IMG/VR virus record: IMGVR_UViG_2609460344_000006
Location: 1-12,509 of that record
DNA from: a virus
Lineage: Duplodnaviria > Heunggongvirae > Uroviricota > Caudoviricetes
DNA length: 12,509 bases
Direction: 5' to 3' (one strand)
How positions within the stretch are numbered: the stretch's first letter is position 1; each line of letters begins with the position of its first letter. A program made the position numbers. Shown here piece after piece: positions 9,001 through 12,000 of the stretch.

Positions 9001-12000
9001 AGACTTTTTGTCAAACACATCTATCGCATCAAGCATTTTTTGCCCCGCAAGCTGCGGCAATGTCTCTAGATTCAAATGCCCAACCTCAACACCAGACTCT
9101 CTTTCGGCCAAATCAAGAAGCCAGATACGAAGCTCTTTAGCTATCTTGGTTCGCGACATCATGCCAATAAGGTGCGCCCCTCGAGGAGAAAACAATCGAA
9201 CCTGAGTGTAATCTATCATGCTGTTTTTATTACACTTCCTCACTTTGGTCACAATTGTCATGCTATCTGTAAACTCATCTTTATGACGATTGTAGATATT
9301 GGAAACCTTATTTGAATTCGCATAACCAAGCAGATCTGCCAATGCCTCAGCGGTAAACCAAATCTTCCCATCACCATTATCAAATGGAATCACGGTATTG
9401 TTTTTGAACGTCAGTTCGTTCATTGAGCGTACTCCTATAGAAATGAGCCTCGTTGCCCAGAAACGCCGCCCGCAGAGAGGTCGCCACCTATAACGACGGT
9501 TCTCCAAGGCTCATTTCTGTAAGGCTCTGCGATTTACATGCGCCGGGCATGGCGCAGATATAAAAAAACCACCAACGCGGTAAGCGCCAGTGGCTTATTG
9601 ATACAGCCTCAAATTAATTGCCAGCACCGAGGTACCCACCCACAGAAGTTTCCCCTCGTTTTGGGGTGAGCTAGTCAACATTTGCACTCCCCAGTTTTGG
9701 GGAGCTCAAACGTTCAACGATGATGCTGCAGATGCGTTCATACCGGCTTTACCTTTTAGTGATGAACCTTGTCACACAGGATTCCGGCCCACAGAAAGGC
9801 ACCGATCACCAAACCGGCATCCTCAAGGGTCATCCTGAAAGGTTCTGTGTTAATAAGTCGCGCGTGTGAAGCGCATTTACTGAGGACATAAAAAAGCCCC
9901 GCTTCTGCGAGGCATTTTCCTGAAAGTCACTTGTTAAATTTCAGTGAAGTTAAAATTATTTTAAGCACTGAGTCCTGATGTACTCCTGCAGGTAGTTAAC
10001 CTGCGCGGTTATCTTGTCGATTCCACTTCGGAGACGGTAATAATTGAGTTCAGCATCTGCTGTAAGTCTTGGGCTTTCTCCATCGCCCATGCTGCTGGCT
10101 CCGGTAGTTGACTTTGCACAGGTGGCGGCGACTTGCAGGCGCTTACGCCCAGCAGAAACATCAGCACGGAGACTTTCAATAGTCGCGTTAGCATCAGCAA
10201 GCTCCTTTGTGTATCTGGTGTCAAGTTCTGCTACATCACGTTGCCGCTTCTGCATATCAGCGATGATGGATGTGGCTTTATCGCGCTGCGCTTTGTAGGT
10301 AATCGCGTTATCACGGTAATGGTCTGTTGCCATCCACAGCGCACCACAGGCCACCAGCAGAATAACGATAAACGCGGAAAGCATTCGGTTTATGTTCACC
10401 CCAGCAACCCCGACGAAGACAACATCATCCAGGCCATGGAAAGAAAAAGAGCAACCAGCATTAGTGAAAATGAAATGCCGACAATTACACAGAGGATCTT
10501 CGCCAGCGTTATGAGTTTGTCTGACATGCTTAATCCTCCCTTCACGATTTCAACGCAATGACCAGTTTTGCCAGCCCATACAGCATCGGGGACACAGCAA
10601 CACCGACCGCCACCCACTTAATGGCAAAAGCCAGTGCTCTGCTGATGTCATCAGTTACAGGCGCTTTCAGTTCAAGGCCATTTTTCATAGTCAACCTCAA
10701 CAGAATTCGTTTATACTTCGCCATGTTCTCCCTTGCCTTACTCAAGGTCAGAAACACAAAACCCCGCTTGGTGCCAACAAACGGGGTTTTTACTTTTATT
10801 CACTTACGTTTCGCCAGTTCGCAGGATTTCGTGTTATCCGCCCGCGTGGCCATACCTTATTTTTCAGCAAAATATTCTGCTTATCTGTCGATTCCCCAGC
10901 ACGCCAGCGCGCTCTCCTGGTCACGACGGGATACCTGACCATAACAGTTATTTGAGCGGATACGGCAGTCTCTGCCACCGTCCTTAATCCACCAGCGAAT
11001 CGCCTCACACGCTCCCCTGCGATCACCTGCATTAATTCGTTTATAAAACGTCGACGGGAAACACTTACCGGGACCAATGTTGTACGGACAGAATGACGCG
11101 ATCCCCGCTTTCTGGGGTTCACTCAATGGCACTCTGATGTTTTTCTCCACCCATGCCAGCGCCTTATCACGCTCAATGGCGTTAACCCGGTCGCATTTTT
11201 CCTTCGACAACTTCATGCCCGGAACGACAGGTTTGCCATCCACCAGGATGGCACCGCGGCAGATGGTCCAGATACCCGCGCCATCACGGTATGCCGTGGT
11301 GTGGTTACCTTCCTTTTCATCCAGAAACTGGTCGAGGATTTCAGGCGCAGGCGCACCTGCGGCAATCAGCGCCAGAACGGCAGCCGACAGGCCGTATTTG
11401 ATTTTGGTGTTCATGGATATTTATCAGGGTTTATCGATTTCAAATCCCTGGATATGTTAAGTCTTCAGGCCAGCGGTGGAGTCTTCAGAGAACCAGTAAT
11501 TATTCCCGGTAGTTTTCCTCTGTAGGTTATCAACACATCCTGCGCCTCTAAAATTACGGGGCGCTTTTCCGGCAACGGACCATCCCCTTCACATAACCCG
11601 GCAGCAACATCCATGAAAAACTGCTTCGCCTGCTTTTTCGCCTCAGCTTCGTAAAACTCCAGCGTGGCATCTTCAGTACGGTCAAGACTAATCGCCACAT
11701 CTGGCAACAACAGTGACGGATACCCACCAATTTCCAGTGCCACAGTAACAGTAATCTTATTCGGGTAATTATTTATCCCTTTAACAACCAGTTCGTATTT
11801 TTTCTTCATCGCTTTACTCTCCCCGCGCCGCCTTACGACGGTCCTCTCTGATTTTGAAATACAGGTTAGTCAGATATGTCAGCAGCCCAAACAGCAGACT
11901 CCCCAGTACGCCTATTGCCGCCCACTGAGACGGGGAAACCCTGTCCAGCAACTGCAGGAACCAGTAGCCCGTTCCCACCGCTGACGTGGTGTATGACACA

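Follow-up and report, generated by a model that had tools for sequence, protein, structure and literature searches.

What are two small membrane-peptide genes doing between the endolysin gene and the spanin gene Rz of a phage lysis cassette? The question is raised by a 12,509-nucleotide (nt) stretch of a Caudoviricetes genome (IMG/VR record IMGVR_UViG_2609460344_000006, positions 1 to 12,509; the whole stretch is called the window hereafter), in which an initial annotation had pointed out, at this place, open reading frames (ORFs) for a 60-amino-acid (aa) protein with a hydrophobic C-terminus, here ORF1, and for a 43-aa single-helix peptide, here ORF2. Their coordinates and lengths are as it gave them, and the flanking genes are indeed an endolysin (PF00959) and Rz (PF03245). 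We find that both ORFs are protein-coding genes under purifying selection and that, together with a hairpin preceding them, they belong to a portable module. The initial annotation had offered modulation of lysis timing, toxin-like action or exclusion as possible roles; the comparative data favour a late, lysis-linked expression, though the other roles keep some likelihood. We tentatively suggest that the two genes encode accessory lysis peptides of the inner membrane, expressed late and coupled in translation to the spanin gene, a reading we hold to be a real possibility though short of probable. All relevant cassette genes lie on the minus strand, in the order S21-type holin, DUF1327, lysozyme, hairpin, ORF1, ORF2, Rz/Rz1 and a terminator-like hairpin. 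The elements on which the argument turns are the following.

10758..10790, minus strand: terminator-type hairpin with a 13-bp stem and flanking A and U runs, from a consensus scan
10725..10757, minus strand: ORF1 leader, conserved across contexts, with the Shine-Dalgarno (SD)-like sequence AAGGGAG
10542..10724, minus strand: ORF1, 60 aa, encoding MAKYKRILLRLTMKNGLELKAPVTDDISRALAFAIKWVAVGVAVSPMLYGLAKLVIALKS
10528..10541, minus strand: ORF1-ORF2 spacer, 14 nt, carrying the ORF2 SD sequence AGGGAGG
10396..10527, minus strand: ORF2, 43 aa, encoding MSDKLITLAKILCVIVGISFSLMLVALFLSMAWMMLSSSGLLG
9956..10399, minus strand: Rz i-spanin gene (PF03245, E=2.1e-36)

The presence of two short ORFs carries no weight by itself, because these 4 kb are overlapped by 51 ORFs with 25 aa or more; the evidence that they are genes is comparative. 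Conservation in related cassettes, which the initial annotation had named as a point to look into, extends to four cassette types, described below, and to 1035 of 5426 complete Escherichia coli genomes, in which a 401-bp segment spanning both ORFs is found at a coverage of at least 80%. The pair also occurs in the plaque-forming phages PhiR5_2 and PhiR12_x, and RefSeq lists both products as "hypothetical protein" (ORF1, WP_001151823.1; ORF2, WP_001280932.1). In a comparative set of ~170 IMG/VR and GenBank loci, with 39 distinct nucleotide sequences of ORF1 and 33 of ORF2, the variable sites of ORF1 are distributed 12/5/27 over codon positions 1/2/3, and the Nei-Gojobori ratio of non-synonymous to synonymous substitution rates (dN/dS) in frame is 0.23 for ORF1 and 0.27 for ORF2 (0.087 within the 44-aa subgroup of ORF2 and 0.45 within the 43-aa subgroup). 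The out-of-frame control gave a dN/dS of 1.3 for the +2 frame of ORF2, the sole such control, as the remaining shifted frames gave zero usable pairs. Several relatives have the reading frame closed 1-4 codons 5' of the ATG, and the start codons are thereby fixed. Codon-position bias, dN/dS, conservation and fixed starts together establish both ORFs as genuine genes, and the first two rule out a spurious-ORF explanation. It is true that short ORFs are abundant by chance and that some copies are frameshifted, fused or truncated, so that one might regard the pair as non-functional recombination scars or chance products; however, selection for the amino acid sequence acts in frame and is absent for ORF2 in the +2 frame, and the ORFs, their starts and SD sequences intact, are conserved in Escherichia, Salmonella and Citrobacter. 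We therefore regard lack of function as hardly credible.

The initial annotation presented the two genes as an insertion into a canonical cassette. Inserted they are, but not as a one-off event: what is inserted is a widespread module that includes the upstream hairpin. The block of hairpin, ORF1 and, in many cases, ORF2 follows the endolysin gene in four unrelated holin/endolysin cassette types (individual loci of the comparative set carry L numbers).

S21 holin with lysozyme: the window and L171, the latter in the order S21 holin, lysozyme, P22-type antirepressor, ORF1, Rz
Phage_holin_8 and Phage_holin_3_7 with a GH108/PG_binding_3 endolysin: L167 and L179-182
Phage_holin_3_1 with a GH19 endolysin, then Rz: Salmonella L172
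Phage_holin_2_3 with lysozyme: L173

The commonest architecture in the fetched loci is holin, (DUF1327), R, ORF1, ORF2, Rz/Rz1, and the ORF1-ORF2 junction is identical in 87 loci. In the GH108-type cassette the block is followed by a gene for a 60-aa lipoprotein instead of Rz (38 loci such as L167; Citrobacter L182). Within lysis cassettes, the module runs in the direction of the other cassette genes and is always placed directly before Rz or the small lipoprotein gene, from which it is 0-12 nt distant or which it overlaps. There are 12-17 nt including an SD sequence between ORF1 and ORF2 (22 nt in one locus), and either an overlap or a gap of 5-12 nt between ORF2 and the gene that follows; the gap between ORF1 and Rz in Salmonella is 10 nt. 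The DNA 5' of the hairpin is wholly different among at least seven unrelated contexts, across all of which the hairpin, at ~33 nt from the start of ORF1, and the leader of ~33 nt are kept, a ~20-nt leader insertion widening this spacing in the Salmonella lysis-cassette copies. Helix 1 of the hairpin is 98.9% paired, with compensatory changes; its sixth stem pair (col11:25) is found in the five forms G-C, A-U, U-G, G-U and U-A and is never unpaired. Compensatory pairing and retention across contexts indicate that the hairpin is a selected structure forming the 5' edge of the module. The hairpin with ORF1, with or without ORF2, is thus a portable module. As for the leader, modelling suggests that it may fold into a small hairpin covering the SD sequence and the AUG; the pairs of this predicted fold (helices 2-3) are almost invariant, with some unpaired.

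Three sequence details of this region are noted here in their own right. The sequence GCAGAATATTTTGCTGAAAAAT comes after the stop codon of the lysozyme gene in the window (10859-10880, minus strand) and recurs behind the lipoprotein gene of a GH108-type cassette (L167, 3534-3555); it could be a boundary, common to both cassettes, at which modules are exchanged. The spacer between lysozyme and ORF1 is 157 nt long and ends in the strong hairpin. The 60-aa lipoprotein, encoded after ORF2 or ORF1 (L167 3341-3522, L087 3192-3374, L180 2640-2822, L182 2640-2822), has the lipobox ...FFLVGC and a mature part of ~29 aa with two further Cys; it falls in phrog_7528, labelled as of unknown function in PHROG, has no Pfam match and has no Rz/Rz1 homologue nearby. 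By size it is comparable to short o-spanins and to the lysis lipoproteins of colicin release; possibly it serves the GH108-type cassette as its factor for the outer-membrane step.

The hydrophobic C-terminus claimed for ORF1 and the single helix claimed for ORF2 are both borne out. The best 19-residue Kyte-Doolittle window of ORF1 scores 1.88 at residues 38-56. Its AlphaFold2 model, computed from a 14-sequence alignment with a mean predicted local distance difference test score of 75.5, consists of a helix at residues 3-14, a loop and a second helix at residues 25-59. The first helix is short, basic and amphipathic (hydrophobic moment 0.56, five Lys/Arg), the loop holds a conserved NGLExxAP motif, and the core of the C-terminal transmembrane helix is rich in Ala, Gly and Ser and includes two Lys and a Ser-Pro. 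The invariant residues cluster in ...I-x2-A-x-AFAIKWVAVG...S...YG.A.L.IA.K. By the positive-inside rule, this arrangement suggests a tail-anchored protein with a cytoplasmic N-terminus. ORF2 is a single, very hydrophobic transmembrane helix (2.89 at residues 11-29), in which S2, D3, C13, V14, V16, G17, S19, F20 and S21 are invariant; C13-x3-G17-x3-S21 forms a small-residue face of the kind that mediates helix-helix packing.

The initial annotation recognised neither peptide, and neither belongs to a characterised family. Searches of Pfam, NCBIfam, PADLOC and PDB sequence profiles gave zero matches for ORF1 or ORF2, and those of Pfam and NCBIfam remained empty for either peptide at E<=0.1, in the same search that found the cassette holin at E=9e-33. 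What they do match, significantly and over full length by hidden Markov model (HMM), as PHROG membership requires, are phrog_1115 (E=2.6e-42), phrog_4493 (E=4.3e-30) and phrog_3246 (E=4.5e-19) in the case of ORF1 and phrog_4906 (E=2.1e-23) in that of ORF2, all four labelled as of unknown function in PHROG. All relatives returned by a search of 5.8 billion proteins are named "hypothetical"; those of ORF1 come from E. coli, E. marmotae and Salmonella and those of ORF2 from E. coli, to which a profile search adds, for ORF2, Citrobacter, Cronobacter-labelled entries, E. albertii and Shigella. The family is narrow, since 1.84 billion cluster representatives, searched exhaustively by HMM, yielded just 22 clusters, with no informative relatives among them. 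Its remotest members retain MKNGLExDAPVTxEIS...A.AI[KR]...YG, and some terminate in IRWW. We found no paper that gives the sequence of either peptide or mentions it, and there is nothing on either ORF in a survey of Shiga toxin (Stx)-phage lysis cassettes, a spanin census, or the supplements of a paper on small genes from ribosome profiling of strain Sakai.

Nor do the two peptides have the layout of known lysis proteins. A holin has at least one transmembrane domain followed by a charged hydrophilic cytoplasmic tail at the C-terminus; ORF1 ends in ...LVIALKS with its charged part at the N-terminus, and ORF2 ends in ...SSSGLLG without a charged tail. Neither has a lipobox or a match to the spanin families PF03245 and PF06085, which the downstream Rz and Rz1 do match, and only ~8 residues of ORF2 and 2 of ORF1 extend past the transmembrane helix, compared to the long periplasmic coiled coil of an i-spanin. 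The idea that ORF2 might be a duplicated N-terminal transmembrane domain of Rz was rejected, as BLASTP gave no alignment and Smith-Waterman scores against shuffled sequences gave z<=2.75. The releasin of phage Mu, gp25 (DUF2730), is a small membrane-tethered, mostly cytoplasmic non-holin protein of a late lysis cluster with a signal-anchor-release endolysin; it is 99 aa long, its transmembrane domain being N-terminal (N-out, C-in) and its cytoplasmic domain acidic (PMC9239132). Neither ORF1 nor ORF2 matches DUF2730/PF10805, and the layout of ORF1 is the opposite one, with 60 aa, a basic soluble N-terminal segment and a C-terminal transmembrane helix; ORF1 is also found beside a GH108 endolysin whose N-terminus appears to have no hydrophobic stretch of the signal-anchor-release kind. 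ORF1 and ORF2 are therefore assignable to PHROG families only and not to holins, spanins or releasins.

The closest functional analogues would be, besides Mu gp25, P2 LysA, the P1 proteins LydB, LydC and LydD, and T4 RI and RIII. The P2, P1 and T4 proteins are small, non-essential membrane proteins, encoded within the holin-endolysin-spanin cluster or next to it, that probably tune lysis and do not carry it out. ORF1 and ORF2 are likewise small membrane proteins within a lysis cluster, but they are much smaller, with one transmembrane helix each, are unrelated in sequence, and occur with many holin types rather than one. The pair, conserved and widespread, would be a variant of the accessory small membrane proteins of lysis cassettes.

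A further reading is a type I toxin-like locus, for which another element matters.

10688..10717, plus strand: weak sigma-70-like element TAGTCA-18-TATACT, antisense to the 5' end of ORF1 and facing the hairpin

Let us assume that this element, speculatively a candidate antisense-RNA promoter, drives a cis-antisense RNA of ~70-80 nt ending at the hairpin, which could act as a terminator in both directions; the RNA would then cover the ribosome-binding region of ORF1, the toxin. Both peptides have the size and hydrophobicity of the class (60 and 43 aa; Kyte-Doolittle values as above), being small hydrophobic single-helix peptides like Hok, Ldr, TisB and ZorO, also with a possible antisense transcript over a translation start. 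The fixed distance of ~33 nt between hairpin and ORF1 and the T-runs that follow the hairpin on the plus strand in every context fit this scheme, as do the retention of the -10-like TATACT (the complement of AAG-TAT-A), which becomes a perfect TATAAT in K-to-N variants and persists in a diverged tail-fibre copy, and the folding of the plus strand at 10722-10806 with z=-2.8. However, the element has 9/12 matches, and the region gives 2 such matches compared to 2.7 expected by chance; the hexamers lie in conserved codons, so that their conservation is confounded by coding constraint; there is no Rfam or Pfam match, the Rfam search of the ORF1/ORF2 region at gathering thresholds having given zero matches; no small RNA (sRNA) was found reported at this position; and the conserved soluble N-terminal segment of ORF1 is uncommon among type I toxins. 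We consider such a locus very improbable. Below threshold, a rimP leader was matched at 10726-10800 on the plus strand (25.6 bits versus a gathering cutoff of 47, E=0.073); it coincides with the hairpin and is probably merely a terminator-like hairpin. The anti-sRNAs of enterohaemorrhagic E. coli prophages (AgvB/AsxR class) were considered and rejected, as these map between PR' and the lysis genes, their position upstream of the latter being that reported by Tree et al. (PMC4104026).

At its other end, the module meets Rz. The ribosome-binding site noted earlier before ORF2 is present as GGGAGG, 8 nt 5' of the ATG. The overlap of the ORF2 stop codon with the Rz start, also claimed, holds if Rz starts at the GTG at 10399, where the two codons share GTGA; it does not hold with the start chosen by the Prokaryotic Genome Annotation Pipeline (PGAP), read from a genome 100% identical over window 10380-10780, which is an ATG 12 nt further on (window 10384). 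We infer that the GTG is the preferable start because it retains the MNxxR cytoplasmic N-terminus common to other Rz alleles; under either start ORF2 and Rz are closely packed. The arrangement is like that of lambda, in which R and Rz share a 4-nt stop/start overlap: the gene 5' of Rz ends in such an overlap given the GTG start, with ORF2 in the place of R, but here that gene encodes a 43-aa membrane peptide and not an endolysin.

One might then ask if ORF2 is chiefly a translational-coupling leader that loads ribosomes onto a poor Rz or lipoprotein start, the peptide itself being of little consequence. The strong SD sequence of ORF2 compared to the overlapping GTG, or the ATG without an SD sequence 12 nt on, of Rz would be consistent with this notion, as would the invariable position of ORF2 just before Rz or the lipoprotein gene and the textbook coupling of Rz to R in lambda through a like overlap. 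Yet there is purifying selection on the amino acids (dN/dS of 0.087 in the 44-aa group as well as 0.27 overall), C13, G17, S19, F20 and S21 of ORF2 are invariant, and other Rz alleles that follow ORF2 have a GGGGGA SD sequence of their own, all of which makes a mere leader function improbable in our view.

We now return to the tentative reading of ORF1 and ORF2 as accessory lysis peptides. In this scenario, recombination would have inserted the module between the endolysin gene and the gene or genes for the outer-membrane step in unrelated lambdoid prophage cassettes of Escherichia, Salmonella and Citrobacter, and the peptides would be expressed solely from the Q-antiterminated late transcript. 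Q-modified polymerase is able to transcribe through terminators, as in lambda; it would pass the hairpin, while unmodified polymerase would stop there, leaving the peptides and spanins insulated. Translation would then proceed in a chain from ORF1 to ORF2 to Rz, termination at ORF2 supplying ribosomes to the weak Rz start. In the cytoplasmic membrane, the peptides might act as non-essential accessory lysis factors, most likely either by helix-helix packing through their small-residue faces or by a generic effect on membrane energisation, the state of which triggers all holins and releases signal-anchor-release endolysins. An effect of the latter kind would adjust the triggering of the holin, or the last step of envelope disruption, with any type of holin. 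The module accompanies four unrelated holin/endolysin systems, and any effect it has should therefore be generic; one specific holin partner is unlikely.

In favour of this scenario are the coding status and prevalence of the genes, their presence in plaque-forming phages, the same slot in four unrelated cassette types with the same kind of neighbour, the lack of any sense-strand sigma-70-like promoter in 9500-12509 by the consensus scan, the structurally conserved hairpin at the 5' edge, and the membrane character of the peptides with their conserved small-xxx-small faces. Other observations weigh against it. No homology links ORF1 or ORF2 to holins, antiholins, spanins or releasin. Paralogues of the ORF1 family whose N-termini differ are found after tail-fibre genes, a classic moron slot; those of L174/175 have a downstream terminator of their own, and L176 has two in tandem. 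Of 81 non-redundant R-type loci, 14 have a truncated ORF2 or none, compared to 3 for R and 2 for Rz (the 81 loci were chosen for ORF1 presence and are uninformative on its loss), and in lambda and DLP12 R is joined directly to Rz; the two genes are dispensable. Lastly, the consensus scan that found no sense-strand sigma-70-like promoter in 9500-12509 is a crude search, from which a weak or non-sigma-70 promoter could escape.

The tail-fibre paralogues and the loss of ORF2 would also fit moron-type genes in the style of HK97 gp15, Sie or DicB, serving the lysogen or the infected cell by superinfection exclusion, by blocking of receptors or transport, or by some fitness effect, their location in the lysis cassette merely reflecting a recombination-tolerant junction. 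Like the lambdoid morons, they encode small proteins that are patchily distributed over variable late-region slots, with frequent ORF2 loss and diversification of paralogues. The gap between R and Rz is itself such a slot: in other phages it holds an antirepressor, a Bro-N gene, paralogous peptides of 28-37 aa, or nothing. A 28-aa peptide, MSAELIRAMAFAIRIVAIAVLVWAIRWW, encoded directly 5' of Rz in some loci, is a truncated ORF1-family member (phrog_4493/3246 matches), and other loci have KFLLVW...AIK peptides of 31-37 aa, ORF1 remnants, or frameshifted or fused copies. Morons in the sense of Juhala and colleagues (2000), however, are said to be autonomous units expressed from the prophage, with a promoter upstream and a terminator downstream. 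In the window the genes have no sense-strand promoter by the above scan, the sole terminator of the module lies upstream rather than downstream of them, ORF2 directly joins Rz so that the pair is fused into the lysis operon, the anti-phage defence models of PADLOC give zero matches to either peptide, and homology to known morons is lacking. On balance, we regard a moron role as somewhat unlikely, though to be taken seriously.

The remaining features of the cassette complete the picture.

11814..12029, minus strand: S21-type class II holin (pinholin family), 71 aa (PF04971, Phage_holin_2_1, E=9e-33)
11465..11809, minus strand: DUF1327/YdfR-family gene, 114 aa, in the holin-endolysin gap (PF07041, E=2.4e-45; phrog_406, labelled as of unknown function in PHROG)
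10881..11414, minus strand: lysozyme R, 177 aa (PF00959, E=1.3e-23)
10009..10194, minus strand: Rz1 o-spanin gene, embedded in Rz (PF06085, E=9e-19)
9896..9913, minus strand: terminator-like hairpin 3' of Rz/Rz1, from a consensus scan

The DUF1327/YdfR gene is a second accessory gene within the cassette, and most, not all, of the related loci have it. The N-terminus of the lysozyme, MNTKIKYGLSAAVLALIAAGAPAP, looks like a signal-anchor-release domain. The start of Rz1 is probably the ATG giving MLTRLLKVSVLMFLLGVSAC..., as deduced from the lipobox. Past the Rz side of the cassette come a Bro-N gene, a KilA-N gene and genes for terminase, protease-capsid and portal proteins, and the region is the late region of a lambdoid prophage. 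We note that the two genes between Rz and terminase are antirepressor-like (KilA-N/ORF11CD3 at 7498-8121 and Bro-N at 8851-9507, both on the minus strand); in Stx phages a similar antirepressor gene is placed within the R-Rz gap instead. A 645-aa ORF (1887-3824, minus strand) joins Peptidase_S78, a prohead protease domain, to Phage_capsid, a major capsid domain, and is an HK97-like protease-capsid fusion.

By tblastn, 276 phage records, most of them from Stx2a and Stx1a phages, carry ORF2 at full length, and in most of the matches listed the homologue is unannotated. The R-Rz gap of these phages holds the antirepressor gene (ant) followed by the ORF2 homologue; in Min27 (L183) the ATG of the latter overlaps the ant stop codon (TGATG), and Rz begins 7 nt past the ORF2 stop. 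The Min27 homologue lies at 2183-2332, and the homologues in Stx phages are 43-49 aa long, intact and conserved. In L179-L181, genes for an LT-II-type heat-labile enterotoxin (Enterotoxin_a, LT-IIB; positions 1-859) stand just 5' of the Phage_holin_8/holin_3_7/GH108 cassette with ORF2, the same toxin-before-lysis layout as that of stx.

The timing of lysis sets the burst size and, for Stx phages, also when and how much Shiga toxin exits the cell. The ORF1-ORF2 pair is present in roughly a fifth of the complete E. coli genomes, and ORF2 also in most Stx phage records, for the most part without annotation; at the least, ORF2 merits annotation in Stx phage genomes. If the peptides prove to be lysis modulators, they would extend a textbook pathway by one component; should they be exclusion factors or toxins, the list of functional phage micro-proteins would grow by them. 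We may go one step further and ask if hairpin, ORF1 and ORF2 represent an unrecognised class of lysis-cassette component, that is, portable inner-membrane micro-proteins, independent of the holin/endolysin type, whose action falls on the outer-membrane step or shortly before it, or else on membrane energisation. We think this unlikely as matters stand, but if it is true, the ORF2 encoded 5' of Rz in most Stx1 and Stx2 phages would affect the timing or the extent of toxin release.

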